A stretch of 64,000 nucleotides of DNA from Candidatus Dojkabacteria bacterium (GCA_016927995.1 JAFGLO010000015.1:3847-67846); one strand, 5' to 3'; positions 1 through 30,993 are shown, counted from the first letter of the stretch. Numbers and translations: made by a program. The notes: generated by a model not told the origin, from the letters alone.

Positions 1-1
1 T

Positions 2-343
2 GATATTAAGGAACTTCGTGGTGATGAAGTTGTCGGTATCAAAATACTAAAAGAGGCGTTAATGTCTCCTATTAAGCAGATTGCTGAAAATGCAGGTAAG
101 AATGGAGATGTTGTTGTTGATAAATGTGGAAAAGGTATTGGATATGATGCAAGAAACGACCGATTTATCGATATGGTTAAAGAGGGTATTGTTGACGCTG
201 CTAAGGTTACAAAATATGCGCTTATTCATGGTGCTTCCGTTGCTGTTATGCTTCTTACAACCGAGGCATTAATCGTCGACGAACCCGAAGATGAAAAGGC
301 TTCTGCCGGTGCTCCCGATATGGGTGGTATGGGCATGATGTAA
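2..343 (+). CDS. groEL: Chaperonin GroEL, C-terminal portion (5' end lies outside the window)
   Basis: The frame is open from position 2. The translation reads ...DIKELRGDEVVGIKILKEAL...IVDAAKVTKYALIHGASVAVMLLTTEALIVDEPE...MGGMGMM*, i.e. the conserved GroEL C-terminal region ending in the typical GGM tail. Confidence 0.9.
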   Translation, partial: DIKELRGDEVVGIKILKEALMSPIKQIAENAGKNGDVVVDKCGKGIGYDARNDRFIDMVKEGIVDAAKVTKYALIHGASVAVMLLTTEALIVDEPEDEKASAGAPDMGGMGMM

Positions 344-412
344 CCGGCGTGTTCCTTTTGCCGGTTAAGGCACTGATGACACAGGGCAAATGTTGTAGCA
401 TAATGAAAGGGA

Positions 413-1453
413 ATGTTTTGCGATGTACTCAGATATGATATATTGGACCAGGAAATAAGTTCAGTATATCAACTAGCCATGCATACAATCCCGACAGGTT
501 CCGCAAAGTCAGCATCTGCAAAAGTCTTGCCTATTGCGCCGGAGCCTCCATTAGAAAAGCTTATTCAAATGTCCTTGCCGCCCGATATTAAGGCCGATGC
601 AATGGCCGCTCAATAAGGATTTGAAATTAAATCTACAGGCGCTGCAGCTGTAGAGCTCGAAGATGCTGGTACGCAGTTAGTAGAAGCTCTTACTGGTGCA
701 ACAGAAACTGCCGCAGAAAACGTTGAAACAGATGTACAAAAGTCACGTAAAGGTATTTGGGAGTTTTGGGGTACAGCCATAGGTGAGAACTGGCGAAGGG
801 TTTTAAACGTCGAAGATACAACCTCCTTTAAAGATCATGCTAAGGGTCTGGCATTTGACCTTGTTGTTTGGGCAACGTCACTTGGGGTAGATGTTGCAGA
901 CCTTTCTGTACTTGTTAATGCAGTGGACTTAGCGATTCCCGGTGCTGGGACAGCCATTTCTGCTGGTATAGACATGGCCTCAAGTGCAGTTGTAGGTAAA
1001 GCCACCGATGTAATTTATTCAAAAATGAAAGAAAAGGAGCTTAGAGATCAAGGCATTTCAGAAGCAGAAATATCAGAGCGTAAGAAAGGGGGTGAATTTA
1101 AATATGTTAGTGATACTGCCAGTGCAATTGCGCTTGCGCTGGGTTGGATCCCTGGGCTTAAAGAGGTAATAAGTAAAACATCTGTACAGGCGACACTTAA
1201 TCTTATGAAACATTCAGCATTTACAGGTAGTACGTACGAAAGTGGGCTTGCTAGAGTCGAAGCATTTCTTGATGGGAAAACAGAGGCAGAGTTTAGAGCA
1301 TTTGCGGAAGCACTTGGTATTAACCTTGGGAAAGATAAAGAGACAACAAAAACAAGTGATCGGACAATGGTTTCCGGTATTATTGTTAAAACCCTGGCAT
1401 CGCTTTTTGCGACACAGCAGACTGTATCGACAGCTGCAACTGCTTCTTTCTAA
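413..1453 (+). pseudogene. P-family paralog (copy 1) interrupted by an in-frame TAA at 614-616. ORFs 413..616 and 617..1453 are in the same frame. The only in-frame start codon after the stop is GTG at 923.
   Basis: Same reading frame on both sides of the TAA, with no ATG/GTG/TTG between 617 and 923. The region upstream of 923 (..KGIWEFWGTAIGENWRRVLNVEDTTSFKDHAKGLAFDLVVWATSLGVDVADL) aligns by eye with P2 (1921..2694: ..KGLWDHAKEVARWLLNVDQGKTLPGTAVGVLRDLAVLGIFVGVDLVDAPL), so the similarity spans the stop-codon region. Confidence 0.35.
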
Positions 1454-1481
1454 CCTAACTAAGATAATTTAAATATCGCTA

Positions 1482-1793
1482 ATGGACATACAAGAACTAA
1501 TAAATCAAAGTGTGGTTATCGAGAGACCTGCCAAAAAATCGCTAATTAATCTTGCTAAACTTCTGCCGGAAAATAGTCTGGAGCCGCTTAAGAAAATCTT
1601 AGAAACGGGTCAGGAAAAAATTAGATCTCACATCGAAACTTATCTTTTGGCTGTGCACGAAGCATTTGCCGAATACAAGAGGACTGTTTTGCAAATAAAA
1701 GGGCTTAAGGTTTTTGAAAAGTCAGAAGTTATTAAAAACGTTAATGTAATTGAAAATGCGATGATTGATAAAATTCTTGAGACGTTAGTTTAG
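1482..1793 (+). CDS. Small helical protein, 103 aa (S-family, copy 1). Hypothetical.
   Basis: Complete ORF. It is clearly paralogous to 2725..3036: both are 103 aa, with ..LLPENSLEPLKKILETGQEKIRSHIETYLLAVHEAFAEYKRTVLQIKGL.. versus ..VLPEDIIQPITDILEDAQAKIDSKVEQYFLSVQASFSKYKAKILSIDGL.. Confidence 0.6.
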   Translation: MDIQELINQSVVIERPAKKSLINLAKLLPENSLEPLKKILETGQEKIRSHIETYLLAVHEAFAEYKRTVLQIKGLKVFEKSEVIKNVNVIENAMIDKILETLV

Positions 1794-1920
1794 TGACGTC
1801 TTCGATAGTTGACTTTAAAGGTACTTTCTAATATTCTTGAGTATTGGACATTGCATGGTTCCTGTGTTTCATGCTATAATACGCAATGTAATTAACTGCT
1901 AAATTTATACAATAACGAAA

Positions 1921-2694
1921 ATGACTACTAATTGGTCTGCAGGACTAGAAGTGAGAACCCTTTCGCAACGACCCGATGCATCAGTAGCGGCTCAAACAAG
2001 TACTGGTAATGTTTTTGTTGATGCTAATCCTTCTGCACAAGGGACTGTTGATGCTAGGCCAACCGCTCCACAAACTCAACCTCCGGCTCAATCTGAGCGA
2101 ACCGCTCAAGGTCAACCTCCTGTAATGGAAGCACAACAACCAGAAAGTTCACCAGAAGCACAGGATCTAGTAGACCAAGCAACAGCTGAGCTCCGTAGTG
2201 AATTAAATGGGGCTTCAGCAGAGGCTGCAGCTGCAATAGAGAGCGAAACTCAAGCTGCTCACAAGGGTCTTTGGGATCATGCAAAAGAGGTTGCAAGATG
2301 GCTTCTCAATGTTGATCAGGGCAAAACTCTTCCTGGTACGGCAGTTGGAGTTTTAAGGGATCTTGCTGTTTTGGGGATCTTCGTGGGAGTAGATCTGGTG
2401 GATGCACCTCTAATTGGGCATGGAGTGGAGGCTTTGTTTGGTGGATTAAATTCTGCGTTGGGTGCGCGTGAAGCTAAGTTCAAGGATCTAATTGATGCAT
2501 ATTTGAAGGGTAACGCAAATGCAATCAACGGAATTAAACACGAGTTTCAGGAAGTTGTACTGGATGTAGTTAAACAAAAATTAGGCATGGATCCTAAAGT
2601 ACCTATTGGTGAATCCTTTGGAGTAATAATTGGTAGAACGGTAAGAGACTTGTTTGGGAGAGTCATGGGTTCTACTGCACAAGCAGCCGCATAA
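1921..2694 (+). CDS. P-family protein copy 2, 257 aa. Pro/Gln/Ala-rich N-terminus followed by a hydrophobic C-terminal half. Hypothetical.
   Basis: ORF preceded by an extended -10 element (TGcTATAAT, 1872-1880). It shares the KG(L/I)W..LNV..hydrophobic GVD(L/V)(V/A)D segment with copy 1. Confidence 0.6.
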   Translation: MTTNWSAGLEVRTLSQRPDASVAAQTSTGNVFVDANPSAQGTVDARPTAPQTQPPAQSERTAQGQPPVMEAQQPESSPEAQDLVDQATAELRSELNGASAEAAAAIESETQAAHKGLWDHAKEVARWLLNVDQGKTLPGTAVGVLRDLAVLGIFVGVDLVDAPLIGHGVEALFGGLNSALGAREAKFKDLIDAYLKGNANAINGIKHEFQEVVLDVVKQKLGMDPKVPIGESFGVIIGRTVRDLFGRVMGSTAQAAA

Positions 2695-2724
2695 TTTGTC
2701 TATACTTAAGTTTAAACTGCCAAA

Positions 2725-3036
2725 ATGAACATGCAAAACGTCATAACAAAAAGTACAGTTATAAGTCCTTCTGTCAAGGAAGCTCTTAATAACCTTTCAG
2801 TGGTATTGCCAGAGGATATCATTCAGCCAATTACTGATATTTTAGAGGATGCACAGGCAAAAATAGATTCAAAGGTTGAACAATATTTTTTGTCTGTACA
2901 AGCCTCTTTTAGTAAATATAAAGCTAAGATTCTTTCAATTGACGGACTTTCATTGAGATTAAAGGCACAGATAGTGTCCAACGTGAACACTATCGAAACC
3001 GCTATTATGGAAAATATAATTAAATCTTTAAGTTAA
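2725..3036 (+). CDS. Small helical protein, 103 aa (S-family, copy 2). Hypothetical.
   Basis: Paralog of 1482..1793. It lies 30 nt after P2 and 13 nt before the 1098-aa protein. Confidence 0.6.
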   Translation: MNMQNVITKSTVISPSVKEALNNLSVVLPEDIIQPITDILEDAQAKIDSKVEQYFLSVQASFSKYKAKILSIDGLSLRLKAQIVSNVNTIETAIMENIIKSLS

Positions 3037-3049
3037 TAATAAATAGAGC

Positions 3050-6000
3050 ATGGCAGTAAATCCAATTAGGGGTCCGGTACCACAATTTTTGGGTGGACCT
3101 CGTGGGGTAATGAATGAAGTCAATGCTGTTGTTCAACGACCTGCTGAGAATGTTTTTCGCTGGATTGACGAGAACCTTAGGCCCGTTAGAGTAATAGGTC
3201 GGCTTGCACAACGAATAGGCAATGCTTTCGATGCAGTTGATAATGTCGCACGTGGAGTTAGACCAGGTGTTGGTAATGTTGTTGATCAGCTCGACGCCCT
3301 TCGTGGAAATGTAGCCCAAGCCGCTGCAAACGTAGTCGATAAGGTGCCTTTGGTTGGGCATAGACTTAGCCAAAATATAGAGGAGCATCACGTTATTGCA
3401 GGCAAAGAAGTAGAAAACCTAGATAGAAGGTTTTATAAAAAGACAAGGGGAAAATCACTTGAGCAAATCGTTGATGCGCAGCTTCACTATAATGCAAAGC
3501 GTGCAGAGTATGAAGATATTGCAAATCAGCCTACGGTTCCTGGTGCACCAAATCTTGTAGAGCAATGGGCCGCCGGGCGTACAGCAGACATTGATTTGCA
3601 TGGGCGGGAAGAGCTTGCTCAAATAGATCCATCAGATACTGCCGCCATTGACAAAAAGCGAAAAGAAATTGCCGCAAGACTTATGGCAGACGAAGATATG
3701 CGAGGTGCAGTTTTGGCTGGAAATGTTATGGACAGAAATTCTTCAAAAGCGGTTCTTGATGCAAAATATGGTAGGGCTAACGCAGACCAAATGGTCAAAA
3801 TTATAGAAAAGAGTGCAAATGCAATGACTCCTACATATGGAGAAGTTCGCGGAGAAAAGAGATTAACCCAAGTTGATACACTGTCTACAGACGATCCGAG
3901 GCTTGGCGTAAGACTTGATATTGCTTCGGACATTGTAAAGAAAAACGCCCTAGATGCTGCCAGTAAAGAGTTTGGTAGAAGAATTGCCGATCCGATTTTG
4001 GAAGGTCAAAAGGTTGATAGGCAGATTGGATTTTTCCGGGATGGTAAGGCTAGGGATTTTGTAGCTGATCTTAGGGCCGGGCTTAGTAAACCTCCTACGG
4101 CTGACGAAATCAAAAGACTTGAAAAGGCTTTAAATAAAAGCCCATTTAACCAAAGAGTTGATATTGACGATAGACTTGCAACACCAGGATCAAGAGTTGG
4201 GCCTGCGGCCAGAGCGCTTGATGTTATCTGGCGAGAAATTTATACGTACGAAGGACTAAGAAATATTGATCTTAGTAAGCCCAAAGATAGAAATGACTTC
4301 AGAAAGACAGTTCTATGCAATATTTATGGTTTAGATACAGATTTAGATCCCAAGGTTAGGGATATGCAGAAGGTTACTGCAGAAGCCAAGAAAATTGCCG
4401 ATGCTAATAACCCCGCTGACAAAGCCAATGCCATAAGTGCGCTTATGGCTAACACGCATATTTCAGAAAATATGAAGTTTGCAATTCTTTTTGATGCTGC
4501 CGTAACAAAGGGTAAAAACATAAATGGAACGCAGAACATTGAACAAATAATTGCATTTATGGATGGGAAGACAATGCCAGAAGTTATGCAAGATCTTGCT
4601 AACGCACTAGGCGTTGCCGATTTAAATAGCACTGCGCCAGGAATTAATAACATGGTTGATTATGTGTTTAATATGCTTCCCGATGTGCAATTACTCGTGG
4701 AAACTCCAGATGGTGATCTTAACCAAGCAATGTGTGAAGCCTTTATGAAGATGCAGCTTCTCGTTGATATGGACAAATTTATGGTAATGAAGGCAGATGG
4801 TTCCGGATGGGAATTTGCGGTTGATGCTAACGGAATTGCTTATTGTCCTCCAAACCTGCAGCCAGCTGTTTTCAAGTACATGGAAATGCTAGGTAAGGAC
4901 AGAAATATGGGCAATGGATTCCTTAAGGCTGTTGGTGAATGGGCAATTGCAAACGCTGGAGGCGCTATGGGTGTCACAATCGATCAGTTACCTGATCGAT
5001 TCTTTAACACACAGGCACAAAACAAGCGTGAAACTCCAAAAACGTTGCGTGATCTTGAAAAGAATCCTCAACTTGCCGATGCCCTTCGTGAACTTGGGCT
5101 TACTCCTGCCGAACAAGCTCGAATCATTAAAGAGAACGAAACAAGCTTGCTTGGACGTTTAATTAGTGGTAGCAAAGAGGCATTTCAAAAATTGGTTCGC
5201 GGTGGTGCATTTGCACTTGCTACAGCCGCAGTAATGACAACCATTGGAGCTACATTAGGAGCTCCGGTCGCTACTGGGCTTGCCGTAGTTATGGGTATTT
5301 ACGCGGCGTTTAACGTATTACGAGGTGGTTCGGATACAATCGTTGGATTTGTAAGATCAGGTGCGGAACTACTTAACGCATGGATTCATGGCGAAGATAA
5401 AGATAGACTTGCCGAAAAGCAGCAAAGATTTAAAGTTGCACTAAAGCGACTTGGTGCATTTGCACTTGGAGCTGCCGGTGGTGCTGCAATGGTTGTTGGT
5501 TTTGGAAATTTTGCGGGCGTAATTGCGTCATTATTAATGATTCCTGCCGAAAAGGTATCAGAGGTTACCAGGCTTATGGAAAACAAATCTAGAGTCAAGA
5601 AATTAATGCAAGAGATTGCCGATGGTACTATTGCTGGCCTTTCCGAAGAAGAAAAAGCTGCCAGGAGAGCCGAATTCAGAAAATGGATTGAAAAGGAAGA
5701 TAGGGCTAAGAATTTCTGGACCGCACTCGTATCCGGTGTCGTAACTGGTGCTGCGGCCGCAGGCTTATGGGTTCCTAAGCAGTATCAAAATCTTGGAGGT
5801 AAGGCTATTCAAAGAATTCGCGCAAGTAGAATGACTGGTCCTACTGGTATTATTGGTGGACCTGGTCCAAGCGTTACTCCACCCGCTGGTCCCCAAACTC
5901 CACCTGCTGGCGGAACTGTTACGGGTGACATTATCGTTGAGCAGGGTGGTAATCATGGAACCAGACTTGTTCCATTTGAGGCAGATGCTAATGGATATAA

Positions 6001-6346
6001 GGTAACGTTGGGTCAAGGAGATAGTGCGGGCGTAGGATTTAAAGCACTTTTTGAGGCACGTAAGGGTGCTGATATCCCGGATTTATGGCCAGATCTGGCG
6101 GCCCAGGGCAATCCGTTTGCACAGTTTGTGGCAAAACACTTGTATAATCCTACAGGTGCTGTTATACAGAGGAATGTATTCATAGACTTCCTTCGTAACA
6201 GAGGGGTAGCCGACCCTGTGGCGTTTATTAATGGAATTGATCAAAAGACGCTGGATGTTTTGTTGCGTACTCCTGGTACTGGTAGGGTAGTTGCAGGAGA
6301 TGTACTAAAGTTGACCAATGAACAAGCACGCGTGCTTTTTGACTAA
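3050..6346 (+). CDS. Large protein, 1098 aa (P3). It has a long helical N-terminal region, about 4-5 predicted TM helices near aa 720-880, a Pro-rich linker (PTGIIGGPGPSVTPPAGPQTPPAGG) and a distinct ~150-aa C-terminal domain. Hypothetical; candidate effector/toxin-like protein.
   Basis: Long uninterrupted ORF. The hydrophobic stretches are visible in the translation (GGAFALATAAVMTTIGATLGAPVATGLAVVMGIYAAF.., LGAFALGAAGGAAMVVGFGNFAGVIASLLMI.., NFWTALVSGVVTGAAAAGLWV). The Pro-rich linker precedes the terminal domain. Confidence 0.7.
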   Translation: MAVNPIRGPVPQFLGGPRGVMNEVNAVVQRPAENVFRWIDENLRPVRVIGRLAQRIGNAFDAVDNVARGVRPGVGNVVDQLDALRGNVAQAAANVVDKVPLVGHRLSQNIEEHHVIAGKEVENLDRRFYKKTRGKSLEQIVDAQLHYNAKRAEYEDIANQPTVPGAPNLVEQWAAGRTADIDLHGREELAQIDPSDTAAIDKKRKEIAARLMADEDMRGAVLAGNVMDRNSSKAVLDAKYGRANADQMVKIIEKSANAMTPTYGEVRGEKRLTQVDTLSTDDPRLGVRLDIASDIVKKNALDAASKEFGRRIADPILEGQKVDRQIGFFRDGKARDFVADLRAGLSKPPTADEIKRLEKALNKSPFNQRVDIDDRLATPGSRVGPAARALDVIWREIYTYEGLRNIDLSKPKDRNDFRKTVLCNIYGLDTDLDPKVRDMQKVTAEAKKIADANNPADKANAISALMANTHISENMKFAILFDAAVTKGKNINGTQNIEQIIAFMDGKTMPEVMQDLANALGVADLNSTAPGINNMVDYVFNMLPDVQLLVETPDGDLNQAMCEAFMKMQLLVDMDKFMVMKADGSGWEFAVDANGIAYCPPNLQPAVFKYMEMLGKDRNMGNGFLKAVGEWAIANAGGAMGVTIDQLPDRFFNTQAQNKRETPKTLRDLEKNPQLADALRELGLTPAEQARIIKENETSLLGRLISGSKEAFQKLVRGGAFALATAAVMTTIGATLGAPVATGLAVVMGIYAAFNVLRGGSDTIVGFVRSGAELLNAWIHGEDKDRLAEKQQRFKVALKRLGAFALGAAGGAAMVVGFGNFAGVIASLLMIPAEKVSEVTRLMENKSRVKKLMQEIADGTIAGLSEEEKAARRAEFRKWIEKEDRAKNFWTALVSGVVTGAAAAGLWVPKQYQNLGGKAIQRIRASRMTGPTGIIGGPGPSVTPPAGPQTPPAGGTVTGDIIVEQGGNHGTRLVPFEADANGYKVTLGQGDSAGVGFKALFEARKGADIPDLWPDLAAQGNPFAQFVAKHLYNPTGAVIQRNVFIDFLRNRGVADPVAFINGIDQKTLDVLLRTPGTGRVVAGDVLKLTNEQARVLFD

Positions 6347-6375
6347 TACGAATCTAAATTAACTGCCCACTAAAA

Positions 6376-6810
6376 ATGGACTTAAACGACTATAGTAGTA
6401 AGTTGCAGGCTCTTACCGGCGTTGCAATGACCGACGAAGAAAAGGAATCAATTACGGCGCTTGCCAAAACTGTTGTTCCCATGCAAACAGATACCGACAG
6501 ATTAGAGATTTTATTAAAGGAAAAGGGTTTAAACGCTGAAGAGGTAGAAGCAATTATCGAGCAAGCAAAGGCACTTTTAGGCCTTTGGCTTTTGCGATAC
6601 ATTTTCGACAATACTACAGAGGACGAGCGCAAAAATATTGAAATTGCTGCCGAAAGTCTCTCTCCAACCCAAACCAACGAACTAATGGATGTTTTAATGG
6701 AAAAAAAGATAGGTAAGTCAATGGCTGATTTGTCCGACGAGTTGTGGGCGCAGGTAGTTGACGCCTTTGTTGAAGATATCGAGACAATCATAAATGACAG
6801 TAAGAGGTAG
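6376..6810 (+). CDS. Small acidic protein, 144 aa. Hypothetical; candidate immunity/chaperone partner of the upstream large protein.
   Basis: ORF 29 nt downstream of P3. It is strongly acidic (many D/E) and helical. Confidence 0.55.
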   Translation: MDLNDYSSKLQALTGVAMTDEEKESITALAKTVVPMQTDTDRLEILLKEKGLNAEEVEAIIEQAKALLGLWLLRYIFDNTTEDERKNIEIAAESLSPTQTNELMDVLMEKKIGKSMADLSDELWAQVVDAFVEDIETIINDSKR

Positions 6811-6881
6811 GTGATAAATAACACCGATAGGTGTCGTAGAGACATGTTTACAACTTGTCCCTATGTATTATTATCGTACAA

Positions 6882-6910
6882 TTGAAAAGGTATCTTGTAT
6901 CCTGTATAAT
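6882..6910 (+). promoter_or_regulatory. Sigma70-like promoter for the pilin gene: TTGAAA - 17 nt - TATAAT. The transcript would be near-leaderless (ATG at 6917).
   Basis: -35 TTGAAA at 6882-6887, a 17-nt spacer, and -10 TATAAT at 6905-6910 preceded by TG. Confidence 0.4.
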
Positions 6911-6916
6911 ACGCGC

Positions 6917-7231
6917 ATGAAAATTTGGCAACAAATAGTAACATATCTGACTGAAATTGATCCCAGCGGTTCAATTACCGCAACAGATACTAAGTCCGTG
7001 GTAACTTTGATCGTGAACATAAGTATCGGGGTTGGCGGGGGAATCGCGACTTTACTTATTATCATCGGCGGTATCCAAATGCTTGGCAGCGGCGGTGATC
7101 CGGGCAAGGTTAAAGAAGGCCAGGAAATGATTGTAAACGCATTAATGGGTTTGGCTCTTATTTTACTTGCTGTAATGGTTGTTCGAACTTTAGGATTTGA
7201 TGTACTTCGTATCCCGGGCTTTACCATGTAG
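6917..7231 (+). CDS. TrbC/VirB2-like type IV secretion pilin-like membrane protein
   Basis: Contains ..GGGIATLLIIIGGIQMLGSGGDPGKVKEGQEMIVNALMGLALILLAV.. The same hydrophobic-SxGDPxK(x)xEAQ-hydrophobic architecture is seen in the paralogs at 55910 and 56252. Assignment to the VirB2/TrbC family is by motif resemblance, not by database search. Confidence 0.5.
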   Translation: MKIWQQIVTYLTEIDPSGSITATDTKSVVTLIVNISIGVGGGIATLLIIIGGIQMLGSGGDPGKVKEGQEMIVNALMGLALILLAVMVVRTLGFDVLRIPGFTM

Positions 7232-7238
7232 TTAAGTG

Positions 7239-7267
7239 TTGACATTGCATAATTACTCTGATAAAAT
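7239..7267 (+). promoter_or_regulatory. Candidate sigma70 promoter upstream of rpoB (TTGACA - 17 nt - TAAAAT)
   Basis: -35 TTGACA at 7239-7244, a 17-nt spacer, and -10 TAAAAT at 7262-7267. This leaves a ~135-nt leader before rpoB. Confidence 0.4.
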
Positions 7268-7404
7268 ACCCCTTGCAGTCTATATCAAATTCGGGAGATA
7301 TCACTAAAAAATGGTAGATCTATTACTAGATAAGCTTTTTTGTATGTATAGTTTTTGTTCGCCTATTAATCGTTTCGCGTCATAAATTAACCTTGATCTA
7401 ACTC

Positions 7405-10400
7405 ATGTCGCCTAAGACACCTTTCGCATGGGGTAATTATAAGAGAAGAGGTAAAGTTGAACGAGTGAATCTTGGTTTCGTAAAAAGAATCTCTGATCCA
7501 CCTTCACTTTTAGTTGCTCAGTTTAACTCCTTTGAGTGGTTTAAGCAAGAAGGAATTGACCAACTTTTCTCTTTAGTTAATCCAATTACTGACCCAACCG
7601 GGTCAAAATGGGAAGTTAAATTCCTGGATTTTCGATTTGGTGAACCGAACCGAACCGAAGATGAAGCTCTTCTTCGGGAATTAAGCTATGATGCTCCGGT
7701 TTATTCAACAATTAGACTTACAAACAAGCGTACGGGCATTGTAAAAGAAAAAGAAATTTTTCTTCTAGATTTCCCCGTAATCACTCAAAATGGCGGATTC
7801 GTTCACAATGGTGTTTCTCGAGCTGTTATTCATCAATTGATAAGAGCCGAGGGCGTTTCTTTTATGGAGGCTAAAAACAGTACTCACGATAGGGCTTTGT
7901 ATATGGCGAAATTAAGACCGCAGAGAGGTTCTTGGATCGAGTTTGTTGTAAATAGACAAGGTGTTATTTTTATAAAACTTATGCAGGGCAACGTAAGAAT
8001 TCCTCTTACAATGCTTTTAAAGGCACTCGGTCGTGGTTCTAATAGTGAACTGCTCGAACTTTTTGCCGATGTTGATATAGGTGAAATAAAATACATTGAA
8101 TCTTGTCTAAAGTATGACCTTACTGTAGGGCAGGAAGATGCCGCATTAACCATTTATCGAATGCTTCGTTCAGACGAAACGGTTGGCGTGCAAACCGCAA
8201 TCCGTTACATCCGCGGGCTTTTCTTTGATTCCAGAAAGTTTTACTTGGGCCGAGTGGGTAGGTATCAAATGTGTAAAAAGTTTGGGAAAAAGCTTGTTGA
8301 AAAAGAAAAGTTTTACAAATTAACTGTTGACGATATTATCGATATTTCAAAACGTCTTATTGAAATTAATAACGGTAATGCTCCGATTGACGATATTGAC
8401 GCACTTACAAATAGAAGGATCCGAAGTGTAGGTGAGCTTTTTGTAAGTCAGCTCGAACAAGGCGTTTTGCGAATGGAGAAGAATATTCGTGACCGACTTA
8501 GTATGTATGGTGACGACGCAAAAATTAATCCTAAGCAGGTTGTTAATGCAAAGCCATTAAGATCAGTTGTTGATATGTTTTTAGGAACAAATAGTCTTTC
8601 AAGGTTTATGGATCAGGAAAATATATTAGCCGAACTCGAAAACAAGCGACGTGTTACTGCAAGTGGACAGGGTGGCGTAAGTAGCGATAGAGCCACGTTT
8701 TCAATTCGAGATATCCATTTTTCACAATATGGTCGAATGTGTCCCGTAAAAACTCCTGAAAAAATGAACATTGGTGTTGTTACTCACCTCGGATTGTACT
8801 CAAGAATAAATGACTATGGGTTTATTGAGGTCATGTACAGAGTAGTAAAATCATCACTTAGTGTTGGTAAAGACAGCATCTTAAATAGAATCCCAAGGGA
8901 AGACATAAAAGCCGGTTCTAAAATCCTTATAAAAGCAGGTGAACTAATTACAAACGAAATAGTAAAGTCTGTTGAAAAGGAATTAAAAGGTAAAGATCTT
9001 TTAGTCAGACCTTTTATTACGAATAAAATAATATGGGTCGACCCGTATCAGGAATTAGAATTGGTTTCTGCGCCTTCAACTGTTGAGCAGGACGAACACG
9101 GAAATATTCTTGCCGAAATAATCCCGGCTCGAAACAAAGGCACCTTTGGAAACGTATATGCTAACGAGCTTAATATTGTTGATGTTTCGCCGAGCCAGGT
9201 TGGAAGTGCAAGCTTGGCCCTTATTCCTTTTGCCGGAAATACCGACTCTGCCAGGCTTCTAATGGGTACCAACATGACAAACCAGGCCGTTCCTTTGGTT
9301 ACGCCTGAGGCACCTATTGTTGGTACAGGTTTCGAGAGGTTTGTTGCGAAGGAATCCGGGTGGGGAATTTATGCCGATTTTGACGGCGAAATTACTTACG
9401 TAGATGCAGAAACAATTGAACTTTCCGTGAAAGGACGCCAAAAGCAAAAATATAAGCTAACTCGATTTAAACAGTCTAATCAAAACACTTCATTTACACA
9501 GCTTTCCAAGGTTTCAGTCGGAGATAAAGTTAAAAAGGGTGATCTTTTGGCCGATGGACCATCTATGGCTAACGGTGAATTGTCAATAGGTCGAAATCTT
9601 TTGGTTGCTTACATGTTTATGGATGGGTTTAATTTCGAAGATGGATTTGTAATATCTGACAGGCTTGTTAAACATGACCTTTTAACATCGGTTCATGTTA
9701 GTACTCATAGTGTTGATGTTCGTGAGACCAAGTTGGGACCGGAGGTTATAACTCGAGATATTCCAGGTGTTTCCGAACGAGCTCTAAGACATTTGGATGA
9801 TAATGGAATTGTACGGGTTGGTGCAAATGTTACCGGTGGTGATGTTTTGGTAGGAATAATTGCACCTAAGGGTGAACATGAACTTTCGGCGGAAGAAAAA
9901 CTTTTACGTGCAATCTTTGGTGAACCTTCACGAGAAGTGGCCGATAACTCGCTTAGAGTTCCCTATGGAGAAGACGGGGTTGTTACTAAGGTGCATATTC
10001 TTTCTTCGGAAAAAGGAGACAGATTGAATGCAGGTGTAATTAAACAGGTTAAAGTTTGGATTGCAAGCACAAAGAAGGTTTCATTTGGAGATAAGCTTGC
10101 CGGACGATACGGTGACAAAGGGACTGTAACAAAGATTTTGCCGGCAGAAGATATGCCGTATATCGAGGGTGGACGAACAGTTGATGTTGTACTAAACCCA
10201 CTTGTTATAAAACGTATGAACCTGGGGCAAATTTTGGAAACATATTTTTCTAACGTAGCATATTCTGCAGGTGTTAATGTGGCAATGCCAAGTTTCGAAG
10301 ATTATGACAAGGAATGGTTTAACGGGAAAATAAAAGAATTAGGGCTTTCGGATACAAACAAGGTAAACATGTACGATGGTCGAACCGGTGAAAAGTTTGA

Positions 10401-10815
10401 TCAGCAGGTTGCAGTGGGCTGGCGTTACCTTATGAGACTAAAGCATATTGCAAGTGAAAAGATTCATGCAAGGTCAACGGGTCCATACACTATGGTTACG
10501 CAACAGCCACTTGCAGGTAGGTCTCATAGAGGTGGACAGCGTTTTGGTGAAATGGAAGTATGGGCGCTTGAGGCTTATGGTGCTGCACACACACTTCAGG
10601 AGATGCTTACAATAAAATCAGATGATGTAGATGGACGATCGGCTGCTTACAAAGCGATTCTTAGTGGTGAAAAGGTTGAAGTGGTAAAAGTCCCTGCATC
10701 GTTTTCCGTACTTGTTCGTGAACTTAACTCGTTGGGTCTAAATGTTGAACTTTTAAGAAACCCCAAAGAAGAGTGGCGTTCCGAAGACAAACCGGAACTG
10801 GATACAAATAAATAA
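7405..10815 (+). CDS. rpoB: DNA-directed RNA polymerase subunit beta
   Basis: 1136-aa ORF with canonical RpoB motifs (..GEMEVWALEAYGAAHTLQEMLTIKSDDVDGR..). Confidence 0.97.
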   Translation: MSPKTPFAWGNYKRRGKVERVNLGFVKRISDPPSLLVAQFNSFEWFKQEGIDQLFSLVNPITDPTGSKWEVKFLDFRFGEPNRTEDEALLRELSYDAPVYSTIRLTNKRTGIVKEKEIFLLDFPVITQNGGFVHNGVSRAVIHQLIRAEGVSFMEAKNSTHDRALYMAKLRPQRGSWIEFVVNRQGVIFIKLMQGNVRIPLTMLLKALGRGSNSELLELFADVDIGEIKYIESCLKYDLTVGQEDAALTIYRMLRSDETVGVQTAIRYIRGLFFDSRKFYLGRVGRYQMCKKFGKKLVEKEKFYKLTVDDIIDISKRLIEINNGNAPIDDIDALTNRRIRSVGELFVSQLEQGVLRMEKNIRDRLSMYGDDAKINPKQVVNAKPLRSVVDMFLGTNSLSRFMDQENILAELENKRRVTASGQGGVSSDRATFSIRDIHFSQYGRMCPVKTPEKMNIGVVTHLGLYSRINDYGFIEVMYRVVKSSLSVGKDSILNRIPREDIKAGSKILIKAGELITNEIVKSVEKELKGKDLLVRPFITNKIIWVDPYQELELVSAPSTVEQDEHGNILAEIIPARNKGTFGNVYANELNIVDVSPSQVGSASLALIPFAGNTDSARLLMGTNMTNQAVPLVTPEAPIVGTGFERFVAKESGWGIYADFDGEITYVDAETIELSVKGRQKQKYKLTRFKQSNQNTSFTQLSKVSVGDKVKKGDLLADGPSMANGELSIGRNLLVAYMFMDGFNFEDGFVISDRLVKHDLLTSVHVSTHSVDVRETKLGPEVITRDIPGVSERALRHLDDNGIVRVGANVTGGDVLVGIIAPKGEHELSAEEKLLRAIFGEPSREVADNSLRVPYGEDGVVTKVHILSSEKGDRLNAGVIKQVKVWIASTKKVSFGDKLAGRYGDKGTVTKILPAEDMPYIEGGRTVDVVLNPLVIKRMNLGQILETYFSNVAYSAGVNVAMPSFEDYDKEWFNGKIKELGLSDTNKVNMYDGRTGEKFDQQVAVGWRYLMRLKHIASEKIHARSTGPYTMVTQQPLAGRSHRGGQRFGEMEVWALEAYGAAHTLQEMLTIKSDDVDGRSAAYKAILSGEKVEVVKVPASFSVLVRELNSLGLNVELLRNPKEEWRSEDKPELDTNK

Positions 10816-10831
10816 TATTTTTTGAATATTT

Positions 10832-13800
10832 ATGTTAGATCTTAGACGGGAGATCAAGAACTTTGACGCGATAAAAATATTACTTGCGTCTCCGGAGGAT
10901 ATACTTAGATGGTCACATGGGGAGGTAACTAAACCCGAAACAATTAACTACCGAACGGGTCGTGCCGAAGTTGATGGACTTATGTGTGAAAAAATTTTCG
11001 GACCTGTGACAAGCTATCAGTGTTATTGTGGAAAATATAGGAAAGCCAGGTATAAAGGAATTGTTTGTGATAAGTGTGGTGTCGAAGTAACCAAGGCTGA
11101 TGTTCGAAGAGAGCGAATGGGTCATATAAAGCTCGTAATCCCGGTTGTACATGTATGGTATGCGCACAGTATTCCAAGCAAGTTATCTATAATCTTGGAT
11201 ATCTCCCAGAAAGACTTAAGATCCGTGATTTATTACACAAGGTTTATTATTACTACAATCGATGAAACAAGGCGAGCCGACGCATTAAAGTTGGTCGAGG
11301 AGTATAGTGAAAAGCGAGTCGGCGAATTAAAAGAAGAGGAAGGTTTAAGGATTAATGATCTTGAAGAGGAGAAGAAGTCCGAAATAAAAGCACTAAAAAA
11401 ACAAAAACTTGATAAAGAAAAATATACGATTCAGGAAGGCTTAATCGATGAGAACTATAAACGACTTGTAGGAGAAGTAAAACGCGATATCAAAGGAGAA
11501 TTAGATGATGTTGAGAATGAAATTCAGCGACTATCTGATCTTGTTAAGAATTTGCGTGTAAAATCAATAATCACCGATGACGAGCACTCTCTAATGAACG
11601 ATGCCGGTATTGATTTCTATTCAGCAATGATTGGCGCCGAGGCAGTTGAACACCTCTTAAAGCAGGTTGATCTTGCTGCCGAGGAGAAAATGCTAAAACA
11701 GAAAATTGTTGATGCCGCAGGAAGACAAAAGGCAAATGATATCCGAAGGCTAAAATACATAACCTCAATGATTAAAAACAAGGTAAAGCCTGAGTGGATG
11801 ATTGTTCACGTTATTCCTGTAATTCCACCTGACTTAAGGCCTATAATCGGATTAACCGGTGGTCGATATGCCGTTTCGGATCTAAATGATCTTTATAGAA
11901 GGGTTATTAACAGAAACAACCGACTAAAGCGCTTGATCGAAATAAATGCACCCGAAGTTATTTTGCGGAATGAAAAGCGGATGCTTCAGGAATCAATTGA
12001 TTCACTAATCGATAATGCACACACACCACACAAGCCGGTACTTAATTCAAAGAGAATTGCGTATAAATCACTTACGGATCAACTTCGTGGTAAAAAGGGT
12101 AGATTCAGAAGGAACTTACTAGGTAAGCGTGTTGACTATTCCGGACGTGCAGTTATTACCGGGGATCCAACGTTAAGTCTTTACGAATGTGGAATTCCGA
12201 AAGTAATGGCACTTGAACTTTTTAAGCCGTTTATTATTCACGAGCTTATTGATCAGGGTCATGCAATTAACGTTCACGAGGCGAAGCGTATTATAAATGA
12301 TGAGGAAGTAATCGTTTGGGATACTCTCGAGAAAATTCTAAAGGATCGCCCCGTTCTACTTAATAGACCACCAACACTTCATAAACAGAGTTTACAAGGG
12401 TTCTATGTTAAGCTTGTAGAGGGAAGTGCAATCAGGTTTCATCCGTTAGTTTGCGGAGGATACAATGCTGACTTCGATGGCGACCAAATGGGAGTTTTTG
12501 TTCCACTTACCGACGAGGCTGTAGAGGAAATAAAAACCAAAATGCTAACAAAGTACAACATTCTTAAACTTGCAAACGGTGAATCCGTAATTTCTTTGTC
12601 AAAAGATATGGTTTGGGGTGTTTATTATATAACTCAGGATCCGGTTGATAAGCCCAAGCGAGTTTTTGCGGATACTGATTCTGCAGTTGGTGCCTTTGAG
12701 GCTGGTTTTCTTGGAATTAGAGATCCTGTCGTTACCGAGACAAAAGCCGGAGTTATCGAAACAACCGTTGGTAGAGTTTTGTTTAACGAAGTTTTTCCCA
12801 ACGAAATCCCTTACATAAACGAGCTTATGAATAAGCGAAAAATTAATAATATAATTGCTGAGTTTGCCGAGACAATGGATCCCGACCTGTTGGTTAGTCT
12901 TCTTGACGGACTAAAGAACTTAAGCTTTAAATATGCCACCGTCTCGGGATTTACAATTGGAAAGTCCGATCTGACTTCATATCAGGGCAAGCTTGGCGAG
13001 ATTGATAATGCTACAAAATCCGAGTCAGAGATTCTTGAAAATTATGAAGAGGGACTTATTACTCAAGAAGAGAAAGAAAGATTGATTCAGGAACTTTGGC
13101 TTGATACAACAGAGAATCTTGCCAACAAATCATGGGAAGATCTTCAAAAGAATGTTGAAAACTCGGTTTATATGCAGATAGAGGCCAAACTATCGGGAAC
13201 GATTGACAACTTAAAGCAGGTAGTTGCTATAAAAGGACTTGTTCGAGATCCTTCCGGTAAGTGGGTGAACCTTCCAATTAAAAGTAATTATACCGATGGA
13301 CTTTCCGTTTTCGAATTCTTTGTTGCGGCACGTGGTGGACGCAAGGGTCTTGCCGATACGGCATTAAGAACTGCCGATAGTGGATATTTAACAAGAAAGC
13401 TTGTTGATGTATCGCACACATCAATTGTTCGCATGGATGATTGCGGATACTCCGGCGAGGGTGTTGAACTTCACAAGAACTCTGCGCGTGAAATTGATTA
13501 TTATTCAAACATTAAAGGAAGAACAGTAGCTGAAGATATTGTCGACCCCAAAACCAAAAAAGTTATTCTTAAAAAGAACGAAGTTATTGACAGAGATATC
13601 GCTAAATTTATTGATCAATGCGAAAAGATAGAGTCAATAAAGGTAAGATCACCACTTTTATGTGAATCTCCGGTTGGACTTTGTCAGAAGTGTTATGGAT
13701 CTGATATTGGTACAGGAAAATTGGTTGAAATCGGAAAAGCCGTTGGAGTTATTGCATCGCAGTCTGTAGGTGAAGCTTCAACGCAGATGACGCTTCGAAC

Positions 13801-26950: not shown

Positions 26951-27775
26951 GTGGCACAAAAACAACACGTTATCCCTCATAACATAGTGGATGTAGATTT
27001 TAAGCTGTTTGGGGTAATGAACCTTAAACAGTTTATATATGTTGCAATTGGCGGTGTTTTAACATATATAACATTTTTGATGGTAAAAGAAGGCTCGATT
27101 CCTGCAATAATTGGCTGGCCTGCCATGGTAGTATTTGTTGTGTTTGGGCTTTCATTTGGGTTACTTCCGGTTAGGGGTAGGTCACTTGATCAGTGGGTCT
27201 TAAGCTATATTGCAGCTGTTCGTAGTCCTACTAAACGTGCCTGGATGAAAAAAGGTATAACACCTGCCGCAATTCCTTCGACAATTCCTATTGAGCAGTT
27301 AAAACCTATGCAGGTAAAACTTGGTACCCAGTCGACTGTTGGTCAAATAATCGGCGGACTGCACATCCCAACTCCTGAGGTTGACGTAAAACAGGTAAGC
27401 TTGCTTAAAGAGCCTGATTCAACCCAGTCCGTATCAATTAAAGAAGGTAGGCAGACATTGCTTTCACCAATGCATGGAACTTCCGGCACAGAAGCACAAC
27501 CCGCACAGCCGATTGTGGAACCTGGTGCAGCTCAACGTTCCGCACCAACAATAATGCAGCCCCAAGAAGAATATCAGCAAGCAAGATATGAAATGATGAG
27601 TTCGTTGCCAGCCGAACAGATACAACCTCAAAAAGTGCAGCCCCAGCAAATTCAACCGACTCAGATACAGCAACCCGGACAGATACCACTTGAGCAGATA
27701 CCCACGGATCAATCACAGCAACCTAAGCAAGGAGAATTAACTCAACAACCATATTCAACGGTAAATCCAACTTAA
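26951..27775 (+). CDS. PrgI/VirB3-like two-TM membrane protein with a Q/P-rich C-terminal tail (T4SS-associated, hypothetical)
   Basis: GTG start. It has two adjacent TM helices (FIYVAIGGVLTYITFLMV; IIGWPAMVVFVVFGLSFGLL) and then a low-complexity QPQ-rich tail. It sits upstream of the VirB4 genes, as PrgI-like genes do in Gram-positive T4SS loci. Confidence 0.4.
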   Translation: MAQKQHVIPHNIVDVDFKLFGVMNLKQFIYVAIGGVLTYITFLMVKEGSIPAIIGWPAMVVFVVFGLSFGLLPVRGRSLDQWVLSYIAAVRSPTKRAWMKKGITPAAIPSTIPIEQLKPMQVKLGTQSTVGQIIGGLHIPTPEVDVKQVSLLKEPDSTQSVSIKEGRQTLLSPMHGTSGTEAQPAQPIVEPGAAQRSAPTIMQPQEEYQQARYEMMSSLPAEQIQPQKVQPQQIQPTQIQQPGQIPLEQIPTDQSQQPKQGELTQQPYSTVNPT

Positions 27776-27790
27776 TTATTTTAAACTGCC

Positions 27791-28267
27791 ATGACGGAAG
27801 TGGAACTGCAGCAACTAACTGCGCAGAACCAAAACTTAATAGACGAAAATGCAAGGCTTAGAAAAACCATAGATGAGCTTAATCTTAAAGTCCAGGAATT
27901 AAGTTCTAAGCTTGGTGTTGGGAAAGAACAACCTGTCCAGTCCGACAGAATCACTATAAATCCACAAACAGTAAAGGATTATAGGATTGATATTATGGGA
28001 GTTGTTCCTCGTGAAAATACTGTAAATTTTGTTGTTAAGGACAGGGAAGGGCTTTTAGTTCCAGACGTTGTATGTATAATAAAAGACTCTTCGGGGCGAC
28101 CAACAAGGGCCGCCAAAAGTAACCAATTGGGGCAAGTTTTATTTACAAGCCCAATGCCAACCGGAAATTATACACTTGAGCTTACCAAGTCGGGATATGC
28201 ATTTCCCTTGTGTGAACTCGAATTAAATGGTAGAGTGCTTGGTTCATTTGAGATTAGGGCTATATAA
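27791..28267 (+). CDS. Coiled-coil / beta-sandwich (CarboxypepD_reg-like) hypothetical protein
   Basis: N-terminal heptad-like region (ELQQLTAQNQNLIDENARLRKTIDELNLKVQEL), followed by ..TGNYTLELTKSGYAFPL.. Confidence 0.45.
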   Translation: MTEVELQQLTAQNQNLIDENARLRKTIDELNLKVQELSSKLGVGKEQPVQSDRITINPQTVKDYRIDIMGVVPRENTVNFVVKDREGLLVPDVVCIIKDSSGRPTRAAKSNQLGQVLFTSPMPTGNYTLELTKSGYAFPLCELELNGRVLGSFEIRAI

Positions 28268-28891
28268 ATGGCACAATCTGTAAATCCAAATAAACAACCG
28301 ATTTTCGATTCAACGCAGGATCATCTTGATATCGTTGAAGTGATAGACGATATGTTACTGCTTCGAGGAAATAAAGTTGCGGTTGTGATTCAAACAACGG
28401 CAGTAAACTTTGATCTTTTGTCAGACGAAGAGCAAGATTCCAGAATTATGGCTTTTGCAAGCCTCTTAAACTCGGTAACATATCCGTTGCAAATTGTTGT
28501 GAGGACAAAGAAGGTTGATATATCAAACTATCTTACTTACCTTAGAAACTACTTGACCCAACCAATGTCGGAAGGTCGAAGAACCCAAATGCAAATATAT
28601 TTAAACTTTATCCAAAACCTAATAGTAAAAAACGAAATCTTAGACAAGCAGTTTTATGTTGTTGTATCATATTCAACCGTGCAGCTTGGAAACGTTAATC
28701 CATTAAAGCTTCTAAAACGAGATAAACAACCCGCACCGACAATTGCAAACGATCTTTTAATAGAGCAGGCCAAAGCGAATTTATATCCTAAGCGAGATCA
28801 TATAATTCGCCAACTTATTAATATGGGAGTTAAGGGATATCAACTAACGGGTGATCAACTAAAGGACGTTTTTTATAATATCTATAATTAA
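28268..28891 (+). CDS. VirB4/TrsE/TcpF-type conjugative ATPase, N-terminal fragment (split gene)
   Basis: ..DIVEVIDDMLLLRGNKVAVVIQTTAVNFDLLSDEEQDSRIMAFASLLNSVTYPLQIVVRTKKV.. matches the N-terminal region of Gram-positive VirB4-like ATPases (I..I.D....G..Y......IN(F/Y)..LSDEE.......S.LLNS). It ends 2 nt before the next ORF, in a different frame. Confidence 0.55.
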   Translation: MAQSVNPNKQPIFDSTQDHLDIVEVIDDMLLLRGNKVAVVIQTTAVNFDLLSDEEQDSRIMAFASLLNSVTYPLQIVVRTKKVDISNYLTYLRNYLTQPMSEGRRTQMQIYLNFIQNLIVKNEILDKQFYVVVSYSTVQLGNVNPLKLLKRDKQPAPTIANDLLIEQAKANLYPKRDHIIRQLINMGVKGYQLTGDQLKDVFYNIYN

Positions 28892-28893
28892 AA

Positions 28894-30993
28894 ATGAGCA
28901 ATCCTATTATTGAAGGAATAAGAAAGGTCTTATTCGGGAAAAAGGCACAAAATACCCAAGGGCAACAACCTGTTCAATACACGCAATCGCAAGGCGTGCA
29001 GATGCAGCCGGTACCGCCAATGCAACCTTCCACCCAAGCAGTTATACAACCACAACCGGGTCAGGTTATACAACCACAACCGGATCAGGTAATACAACCA
29101 CAGCCGGGTCAGGTAATACAACCGCCAGAAGGAACTCCTGTAATTACACAAGTGACTCAGGATATGCAACTTGCTCAGGCTCAGGCTAATGAACAGATAG
29201 GCATTAGGGATATATTGGCACCAAGCTACATAGAGGTCGATTTTAATTATATTCAGGTTGGAAGAAAATACTTTAGAACCCTTTTTATATCGAAATATCC
29301 GCGCGTAGTTAGAATCAACTGGCTTTCTCCATTAATAAATTTCGATAGCTCCCTTATTATTAGTACACACTATTATCCACTTGATATTAAAGATGTACTT
29401 GCTAGACTCAAAAAGAAAATGGGTGAGCTGGAGGCAACTTTAATGGTTCAGGTTGAGAAGGGAAAGGTTATCGATCCTACGGCAAAGGTTGCATTAAAAG
29501 ATGCACAAAGCTTACAAGATGCAATTGCATCGGGTGCGGAAAAGCTATTTCAGTTTGGGCTTTACGTAACAGTTGAGGCAAATTCTACGGAAGAACTAAA
29601 TAAAGTCACGAAAGATGTTGTCTCCACAATATCTGCACTTGATATGCAAGCCGACCCGACAACACTTCAAATGGAGCAGGGGTTGCAGTCGTCCATTCCA
29701 TCCGGTGTAGACAAACTTTTTTACAACCGAAATCTTGATACAACATCAATTGCAACAACGTTTCCGTTTATTACGTCTGAACTTACAATGGATCATGGAA
29801 TTTTATATGGAGTTAACCTGCATAACAAAAGTCTCGTTGTCTTTGATAGGTTTGATTTAGAGAATGCTAATTCCACGGTTTTTGCAAGATCGGGTGCAGG
29901 TAAAAGTTATTTCGTAAAACTGGAGATTTTTAGAAGTCTAATGCTTGGAACCGAAGTTATTATTATTGATCCGGAAAAGGAGTATGAAAGCTTGGCAAAA
30001 TCACTCGATGGATTATATATTACTTTTTCCCAGGATGAAGGTTATAAAGTAAATCCGTTTGAACTTCCCGGCGCGTTAATCGAAGAGGGTGTTGATCAGC
30101 TTCGTGAAAAAATTCTCTCTCTTCAGCGATTTTTTAATATTATGTTTGGCGGAACCAGTAATTTGGAAAAGGCTATCCTTGATAGAGCAATGATGCTTAC
30201 TTACAATGAAAAAGGAATAACAGTCGAACCCTCAACTCAGAGTAATCCTGCACCGCTTTTGGAGGATCTCTATAAAGTACTTAAAGGGTTTACTGAAGAA
30301 GATGCACAAAGCCTGGCAAAGCGAATGGAGCGATTTATAATTGGTAGCGCAGCAGGAATATTTAATGAGCGGACAAATCTATCATTAGACAATCCATTTA
30401 CCGTGTTTTCAATTCGTGATCTATCGGAAGAATTAAGACCGTTAGCAATGTATCAAATGCTTGATTTTATCTGGACTAATATACGAAAAATCCGCAAAAA
30501 AAGAATTTTGGTTGTAGAGGAGGCCTGGTATATGATGCAACGTCCCGATTCGGCCGAATTTATGTATTCTATTGCAAAACGTGCTCGAAAGTACTATCTT
30601 GGGCTCACTACAATAAGTCAAGATGTCGACGACTTTTTATCTACTGATTATGGAAAAGCCGTAGTAAACAACAGTGCCATGCAGATTCTCTTGAAGCAAA
30701 GTTCCTCTGCAATTGACCGAATCCAGTTTGTGTTTAAGCTTACCGAGGGAGAGCGATCATTTCTTTTAAGATGCGGAATAGGTGAAGGACTATTCTTTGC
30801 AGGGAATAATCATGTGGCAATTAAAAGCGTTTCAAGTCTTGCCGAGCACAGACTTATGACAACCAATCCACAGGAAATGGATTTTTATAAACAGGTTGGA
30901 CTAATGGATGATACAGATTCCGAAAAACTCTCAAAGGTGTTTACACCGACCTTAGTTGAATCCTTATACGGAAATAAAAATGGGAATATTTGA
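28894..30993 (+). CDS. VirB4/TrbE-family type IV secretion ATPase (main body), with an N-terminal Q/P-rich repeat insert
   Basis: ..VDFNYIQVGRKYFRTLFISKYPRVVRINWLSPLINFDSSLIISTHYYPLD.., Walker A FARSGAGKSYFVK and Walker B RILVVEEAWYMM are all present. Confidence 0.8.
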   Translation: MSNPIIEGIRKVLFGKKAQNTQGQQPVQYTQSQGVQMQPVPPMQPSTQAVIQPQPGQVIQPQPDQVIQPQPGQVIQPPEGTPVITQVTQDMQLAQAQANEQIGIRDILAPSYIEVDFNYIQVGRKYFRTLFISKYPRVVRINWLSPLINFDSSLIISTHYYPLDIKDVLARLKKKMGELEATLMVQVEKGKVIDPTAKVALKDAQSLQDAIASGAEKLFQFGLYVTVEANSTEELNKVTKDVVSTISALDMQADPTTLQMEQGLQSSIPSGVDKLFYNRNLDTTSIATTFPFITSELTMDHGILYGVNLHNKSLVVFDRFDLENANSTVFARSGAGKSYFVKLEIFRSLMLGTEVIIIDPEKEYESLAKSLDGLYITFSQDEGYKVNPFELPGALIEEGVDQLREKILSLQRFFNIMFGGTSNLEKAILDRAMMLTYNEKGITVEPSTQSNPAPLLEDLYKVLKGFTEEDAQSLAKRMERFIIGSAAGIFNERTNLSLDNPFTVFSIRDLSEELRPLAMYQMLDFIWTNIRKIRKKRILVVEEAWYMMQRPDSAEFMYSIAKRARKYYLGLTTISQDVDDFLSTDYGKAVVNNSAMQILLKQSSSAIDRIQFVFKLTEGERSFLLRCGIGEGLFFAGNNHVAIKSVSSLAEHRLMTTNPQEMDFYKQVGLMDDTDSEKLSKVFTPTLVESLYGNKNGNI
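29041..29124 (+). repeat. 24-bp tandem repeat, about 3.4 copies, encoding VIQPQPGQ units
   Basis: gttatacaaccacaaccgggtcag, gttatacaaccacaaccggatcag, gtaatacaaccacagccgggtcag, then a partial copy. Confidence 0.9.

Follow-up and report, generated by a model that had tools for sequence, protein, structure and literature searches.

Paired hydrophobic and small, mostly acidic proteins in a candidate secretion-linked cassette of Candidatus Dojkabacteria

Positions 413–6810 of a 64,000-nucleotide stretch of DNA (the window) from a metagenome-assembled genome of Candidatus Dojkabacteria (WS6; ultra-small bacteria of the candidate phyla radiation, CPR, also called Patescibacteria) carry a cassette of six genes, P1, S1, P2, S2, P3 and Ac, whose open reading frames (ORFs) are annotated as the hypothetical proteins JW962_03490 to JW962_03515. 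The module that these genes form is real and conserved but very narrowly distributed, its units consisting of a hairpin protein and a small helical, mostly acidic partner, and its four protein families (P3, Ac, S and P) are previously undescribed and novel by sequence. P3 and Ac occur together in about five lineages and P–S units recur in variable number, so that the conservation of gene order in related genomes, which a first reading of this DNA (the initial annotation) had proposed as a check, is indeed found. As a tentative preference, we read the cassette as a set of substrate-plus-chaperone pairs linked to the Patescibacterial type IV secretion system (T4SS)-like apparatus; a resident envelope complex comes close behind and is nearly as likely.

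The view that no cassette protein can be assigned to a known family withstood every search. None of the six proteins scored above threshold in scans against Pfam, NCBIfam, PHROGs and PADLOC, and the PDB sequences, searched with profiles from the alignments of P3, Ac, S and P, yielded no significant match. Weak matches to Terminase_6 (E 0.0015) and DUF294_C (E 0.0027) lay below the cut-offs and were rejected.

The P3–Ac core

The gene order is groEL (3′ end, 62–343), P1, S1, P2, S2, P3, Ac, a T4SS_pilin gene, rpoB and rpoC, with the cassette genes, the features within them and the pilin gene all on the + strand. Both this order and the ORFs are largely as first described, the coordinates of S1, S2, P2, P3 and the acidic ORF having been borne out, and a second (Logan) assembly of the same read set contains 10,560 nucleotides identical to the window.

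P3 (3050–6346, 1098 residues), the module's core protein, is predicted to be helical from about residue 30 to residue 926, with its first hydrophobic segment at residue 718. The long helical N-terminal region, hydrophobic helices, Pro-rich linker and distinct C-terminal domain reported for it earlier can all be recognized, but the hydrophobic helices lie in the C-terminal third and not in the center of the protein. They form two Gly/Ala-rich hairpins, hairpin 1 at residues 718–758 (5201–5323) and hairpin 2 at residues 800–834 (5447–5551), both of which begin with GAFAL. A 26-nucleotide direct repeat with 85% identity (5203–5228 and 5452–5477) encodes these two starts and suggests an origin by internal duplication, hairpin 2 probably being an internal repeat of hairpin 1. 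The transmembrane status of a fifth hydrophobic segment (residues 889–909, 5714–5776) is doubtful because it is weak, with a 19-residue Kyte–Doolittle mean of 1.48, and is followed by a flank of charge +5 that contains no acidic residues. A Gly/Pro-rich linker (residues 925–955, 5822–5914), with a similar Pro-rich counterpart in the P3 homolog P0011, then leads to the C-terminal domain (residues 956–1098, 5915–6343), in which beta strands are followed by helices; this domain has no Pfam or NCBIfam match, and its best phmmer hit in the PDB has an E value of 0.11. The loops around the hairpins are K/R-rich and, together with the +5 flank, suggest by the positive-inside rule that both ends of P3, the C-terminal domain included, are cytoplasmic in the producing cell. 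We infer that such a topology would suit a surface adhesin less well than an export substrate or a protein anchored by its hairpins.

Conservation within P3 is confined to residues 524–904 (4619–5761), the only part kept in remote homologs, which comprises a RELGLTPE..A..I motif and both hairpins. The N-terminal stretch of about 500 residues is as divergent as the C-terminus, and the C-terminal domain cannot be aligned across lineages except for a short VAK..(L/Y)NP(G/T)G motif. Swapping of this domain between related genomes, another expectation of the initial annotation, was not seen: in the two closest lineages the C-terminal domain is 40% identical and the rest of P3 47%, and as the C-terminus is thus kept much like the remainder, the pattern speaks for divergence without domain exchange. 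The proposed paralogy of P3 with P1 and P2 likewise went undetected (BLASTP E at least 0.03; hhalign probability 2%), and hhalign revealed no relationship of the P3 family to the P family, the S family or Ac, nor any between Ac and S.

Several P3 homologs are broken. In the locus L008 (8919–12022) the homolog is split into ORFs of 912 and 97 residues at the linker before the C-terminal domain, and other members of the P3 clusters are also fragmented. Phase variation was considered as a cause of the frequent fragmentation and rejected, the fragmented copy in L010 coming from a contig with only 1.7x coverage, where an assembly error is likely.

Behind P3 stands the small acidic ORF that had been noted there, Ac (6376–6810), which encodes 144 residues with an isoelectric point (pI) of 4.26 (31 D+E vs 15 K+R) and is a predicted all-helical partner of P3, modeled as all-alpha with seven helices. 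An Ac homolog lies directly 3′ of every P3 homolog and is 27–39% identical to the window Ac, colinear over its full length. Ac is the best-conserved protein of the module, at 29–39% identity where P3 overall has 21–26%.

P–S units and relatives of the module

P1 had been given as one gene at 413–1453. A homologous P-family frame does span this interval, as P2 aligns with P1 DNA across an in-frame TAA at 614–616 (tblastn, window 530–1030, E 1e-7), but the interval is not one ORF: it is annotated as a 67-residue ORF (413–616) and a 176-residue ORF (GTG 923–1453), GTG 923 being the first in-frame ATG, GTG or TTG after the stop. Because the alignment crosses the stop, P1 is an interrupted P-family gene. 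The Logan assembly, made from the same reads, has the identical TAA, which may mark a pseudogene, a polymorphism of the strain or a site of read-through.

P2 (1921–2694, 257 residues) combines a Pro/Gln/Ala-rich N-terminus with a KGLW...LNV...GVDLVD segment, and its hydrophobic peak lies at residues 148–166 (19-residue mean 1.98). P1 and P2 share 28% identity over 125 residues (E 2e-6 by BLASTP and, in a database of 40 sequences, E 6e-10 by phmmer) and are paralogs, more weakly related than S1 and S2. The KG(I/L)W...LNV...GVD..D segment ascribed to both is indeed common to them, but its description as hydrophobic needs qualifying: it contains Asp, and it is not hydrophobic at all in the homologs L2_433 and L8_427. 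These P-like proteins from other loci align with the P1+P2 alignment at an hhalign probability of 82%, and by direct reading other upstream proteins at related loci show a GVD..D-type motif.

S1 (1482–1793) and S2 (2725–3036) are the partner proteins of P1 and P2, respectively. They had been called equal-length paralogs and are so, with 103 residues each and 40% identity without a gap (BLASTP E 2e-28); their pI values are 6.7 and 5.3. S-like proteins of 106–116 residues recur upstream at related loci, S1 matching L7_116 at a phmmer E value of 3e-7 and the window S family aligning with L2_106 and L8_106 at an hhalign probability of 83%. The likeness to WXG100 targeting partners that had been suggested for S1 and S2 was not upheld. 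No match to WXG100 (PF06013) was found in seven S-family members at E ≤ 0.1, neither S1 nor S2 contains a tryptophan, and no EssC-type ATPase is encoded in the window, where the sole FtsK is canonical (4TM, alpha, motor and gamma domains); S, moreover, accompanies P and not P3.

A pairing rule emerges from these loci. S is seen only where P is, Ac accompanies P3, and each partner gene starts within about 30 nucleotides after the gene of its hydrophobic protein. The partner proteins have 103–177 residues and a pI of 4.3–5.6, with S1 as the exception. The number of P–S units per locus varies from none to at least two: L006, which was read on both sides, has P3–Ac and neither P nor S, and L002 has an extra pair made of a 183-residue hydrophobic protein followed by a 113-residue acidic protein. 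The window and L006 stem from the same sample (SRR13394437) and represent two Dojkabacteria genomes with a similar VirB4-dnaK-grpE-hrcA order, in which the module occupies different chromosomal positions and P3 is only 25% identical; the L002 and L009 loci are 99.8–100% identical.

Relatives beyond these loci are few. An exhaustive phmmer search of 1.84 billion protein representatives yielded four remote P3 relatives (E 1e-17 to 4.5e-5), all matching residues 524–904 only, and when 5.8 billion proteins were searched by word index, the only matches of P3 and of the S1+S2 profile were to themselves. From a degenerate-DNA scan of metagenome contigs came 21 matches, one of them real, namely an activated-sludge contig that was already known. 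No match was obtained when IMG/VR was scanned with the Ac alignment or when phage and plasmid collections were searched with P3 by tblastn. All named sources of the module are Dojkabacteria.

Other genes at the related loci include several of the 23S_rRNA_IVP (four-helix-bundle) type, in L002 (7797–8165), L011 (7797–8165, 20764–21108 and 21905–22261) and L010 (6809–7057 and 16219–16551); one of them lies inside the cassette, on the opposite strand, where it separates an S gene from the P gene that follows. A tyrosine recombinase gene in L007 (5293–5727, − strand; Phage_integrase family, E 1e-17) is convergent to the Ac-like gene, and may hint at mobility or be a plain Xer-type gene.

Secretion context and competing explanations

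The cassette proteins are less hydrophobic than the membrane proteins around them. Their hydrophobic peaks and those of their homologs reach at most 2.09, with a median of 1.87 (19-residue Kyte–Doolittle mean), compared with a median of 2.28 for 45 transmembrane peaks of other window proteins (Mann–Whitney P = 2e-5, the homologs not being independent), and no module protein has an N-terminal hydrophobic segment. Membrane-protein substrates of type III secretion systems (T3SS) and T4SS have a hydrophobicity just under the threshold for inner-membrane targeting, and it is their transmembrane segments to which chaperones bind (Krampen et al. 2018, PMC6110835). The hydrophobicity of the cassette proteins and the pattern of their partners match this rule (PMC6110835): each hydrophobic protein has an adjacent small acidic partner, S1 with its pI of 6.7 excepted, together with moderate hydrophobicity and no Sec signal.

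The gene after the acidic ORF is, as the initial annotation held, a T4SS-type pilin gene (6863–7231; T4SS_pilin, PF18895, E 4e-9, above the gathering score), with a likely start at ATG 6917 that gives 104 residues. T4SS-like genes are dispersed over the window and comprise three PF18895 pilins, a PrgI/VirB3-like gene beside VirB4, and a VirD4-like coupling protein. The other two T4SS_pilin genes stand in tandem (55910–56242 and 56252–56587), one of them 48% identical over 48 residues to the cassette-side pilin, and are followed by genes for a basic protein of 95 residues and a Pro/Gln-rich protein of 155 residues, after which comes the VirD4-like gene (57476–59935). PrgI (VirB3-like, 274 residues), two unassigned ORFs and VirB4 follow one another at 26951–30993; no VirB6-like polytopic protein was found near PrgI/VirB4 and no VirB6 Pfam match in the window, where virB4 lies 22 kb from the cassette. 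In the lineage of L002, L008, L010, L011 and L012 the cassette stands divergently beside a coupling-protein gene that is a full-length, 40%-identical ortholog of the one in the window, and in L006 VirB4 is 8.5 kb from the module. The module therefore directly abuts a T4SS gene in 2/3 informative contexts. By a rough estimate such adjacency would arise by chance at about 1–2% of loci, which makes two contexts out of three suggestive, though the number is tiny. According to the literature, T4SS genes of CPR bacteria are scattered around the genome and their role and substrates are unknown; the Patescibacterial T4SS-like system is widespread, is indispensable for growth as an epibiont in the single species tested, and has been called functionally "completely unknown" (PMC11665869).

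It is plausible that S and Ac act as dedicated cytosolic chaperones or adaptors that physically bind P and P3 in their hydrophobic or conserved regions. In this model, binding would stop P and P3 from inserting into the membrane of the producer itself, and S and Ac would pass them on to the Patescibacterial T4SS-like apparatus for export. P and P3 might then enter the membrane at the symbiont–host interface as pore, translocon or anchoring proteins, with the fast-evolving C-terminal domain of P3 as a partner-specific end. The module would offer a concrete set of candidates for this system. The more ambitious statement, that P1, P2 and P3 are the first candidate substrates of the CPR T4SS-like system, membrane-inserting hairpin proteins brought to the host-cell interface, and that S and Ac are two new families of dedicated secretion chaperones, is rather unlikely; if true, it would offer a handle on what the system transports. 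Even without a T4SS link there would remain four new families with a clear pairing rule.

Known secretion pairs lend this model a partial parallel. As in T3SS/T4SS membrane substrates and their chaperones (SseF–SscB; PMC6110835), a hydrophobic protein and a small acidic partner are encoded side by side, hydrophobicity is sub-threshold, a Sec-type N-terminal signal is lacking and secretion genes are nearby. In contrast to those chaperones, the cassette proteins have no sequence or fold match to CesT-like, TPR class II, IcmS/W or VirE1 proteins or to translocators, and the partner gene comes after, not before, its putative client. The host also differs, being a CPR bacterium of monoderm-like type with no known substrate for its T4SS, and binding and secretion are only putative. 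Bilobed hydrophobic hairpins are a feature of chlamydial Inc proteins and T3SS translocators, and hairpins of about 35–41 residues in otherwise hydrophilic, helical proteins are what P3 and its relatives share with them; unlike the cassette proteins, however, these belong to another secretion system, show no homology, and are much smaller than P3 with its two hairpins.

A number of points weigh against secretion by this route. Homology to a chaperone, effector or translocator family was found for none of the proteins, and the low hydrophobicity may reflect nothing beyond Gly/Ala-rich resident membrane helices. The pilin gene is probably a transcription unit separate from the cassette, having its own promoter-like site (TTGAAA-17-TATAAT, 6882–6910). 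Only three contexts are informative for T4SS adjacency, and one of these has no T4SS gene closer than 8.5 kb. The module amounts to five clusters at 50% identity among the 1.84 billion proteins, and a pattern scan based on the Ac alignment found one locus in 185,579 species genomes; a module of such rarity cannot be a component of T4SS in general. With P1 interrupted, not every unit is needed. The structure model of P3 (predicted local distance difference test, pLDDT, 39.6) is unusable and that of Ac only moderately confident (pLDDT 64.6). Only a few uncultured Dojkabacteria have the module, and the functional evidence is all circumstantial. The earlier proposal of a T4SS-linked secreted effector or membrane-insertion module is viable and modestly strengthened by conservation, adjacency and moderate hydrophobicity, while the function itself is unproven.

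Many of the same observations could be accommodated by a resident envelope complex, which is possible if somewhat doubtful: P3 would be an integral membrane protein of the Dojkabacteria cell, with Ac, S and P serving its assembly or regulation as subunits in the cytoplasm or at the periphery, and nothing would be secreted. Such a complex could be a lineage-specific stand-in for a missing VirB6-like T4SS membrane subunit, or a surface anchor or adhesin. The large helical N-domain of P3 would lie in the cytoplasm and its two hairpins in the membrane, and a Pro-rich stalk might hold the C-terminal domain outside the cell. The K/R-rich loops flanking the hairpins would fit the cytoplasm, and a tip that spans the wall and faces the host could well consist of the Pro-rich linker and the fast-evolving domain at its end, whereas the weak fifth segment and its +5 flank would, by the positive-inside rule, put the C-terminus in the cytoplasm. 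The module adjoins T4SS genes in a window without a VirB6 match, and VirB6 is rarely detected in Microgenomates-type CPR (PMC12102498); P3 comes from a lineage of which this is true, and resembles VirB6/TrbL proteins, including "extended VirB6", in being large, with several hydrophobic helices and a big hydrophilic extension. No match to VirB6/TrbL (PF04610 or related) was found, however, for P3 at E ≤ 1, for its homologs at E ≤ 0.1, or in NCBIfam, nor is there a PrgH-type match. P3 does not stand beside virB4, has only two moderate hairpins and one weak segment after a 715-residue soluble N-domain, and is restricted to a handful of genomes, far too rare for a core subunit. A resident complex also sits uneasily with hydrophobicity under that of the bona fide membrane proteins in the window, and does not account for the pairing of every hydrophobic protein with a small, mostly acidic partner of its own.

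The intuitive reading as a polymorphic toxin, with a variable P3 C-terminal toxin, the acidic ORF as immunity protein and S1 and S2 as WXG100/Lap-like targeting partners, appears to be wrong here and is improbable. LXG type VIIb secretion operons have Lap targeting partners upstream and an immunity gene downstream, and the cassette resembles them in its small helical-looking genes upstream, its large protein whose C-terminus of about 140 residues is unalignable across lineages and follows a Gly/Pro-rich linker, and its small acidic gene immediately 3′ of P3. Yet immunity should co-vary with the toxin, and what is seen is the opposite: Ac is conserved beside every P3 homolog and tracks the hairpin core, while the C-terminal domain diverges beyond recognition. 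The lack of domain swapping in the closest lineages and of a conserved trafficking domain in the equally divergent N-terminal region of P3 may point the same way. No match to a toxin, LXG, WXG100 or immunity family was found, LXG (PF04740) having none in P3 or its four homologs; S1 and S2 also differ from Lap partners in lacking Trp, in their pairing with P, and in standing in a window without EssC. Less probable still is a remnant of a mobile element or prophage, for example a protein of tape-measure type and the chaperones for its assembly, or a set of lineage-specific ORFs in decay that no longer serve the cell. It would account for the different chromosomal positions in related genomes, the tyrosine recombinase adjoining the module in L007, the interrupted P1, the split P3 in L008, and the superficial likeness of a long helical protein with internal hydrophobic segments to a tape-measure protein. 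P3, however, has no PHROG or Pfam tape-measure match and no phage structural neighbors, no relatives were found in the phage, plasmid and IMG/VR collections, and the flanks (groEL and pilin/rpoB in one context, the coupling-protein gene and dnaA in the other) hold no phage genes. Ac, S and the P3 core are colinear over their full length at 25–57% identity across lineages, which implies purifying selection, and the other fragmented copy derives from the 1.7x-coverage assembly.

Transcription signals and remaining genes

A promoter-like site (376–404, + strand; ATGACA-17-CATAAT, a 10/12 match) ends 8 nucleotides before the ATG at 413. The 127-nucleotide spacer between S1 and P2 (1794–1920, + strand), where the initial annotation had placed a promoter, does contain promoter-like elements, TTGACT-17-TATTCT at 1809–1837 and GACATTGCAT...TATAAT at 1847–1882, and a 20-nucleotide stretch of it (1847–1866) is 80% identical to the promoter-like site of rpoB (7241–7260); such sites, however, show no enrichment over shuffles. 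The motif TAATACG..AATTAACTGC occurs upstream of both P2 (1877–1899) and Ac (6344–6366).

Shine–Dalgarno sequences are absent upstream of all genes in 1–10900, rpoB and rpoC included. TATAAT-like boxes lie 6–8 nucleotides 5′ of the ATGs at 413 (P1) and 6917 (pilin), and the closeness of these −10-like boxes to the start codons suggests leaderless mRNAs for both genes. Tentatively, the likely transcription units are P1–S1, P2–S2–P3–Ac and the pilin gene.

Elsewhere in the window, two large ORFs on the − strand (36520–39015 and 43032–45275), of 831 and 747 residues, match nothing in Pfam. Both have one hydrophobic segment at the N-terminal end and one at the C-terminal end, and they may be further lineage-specific envelope proteins.

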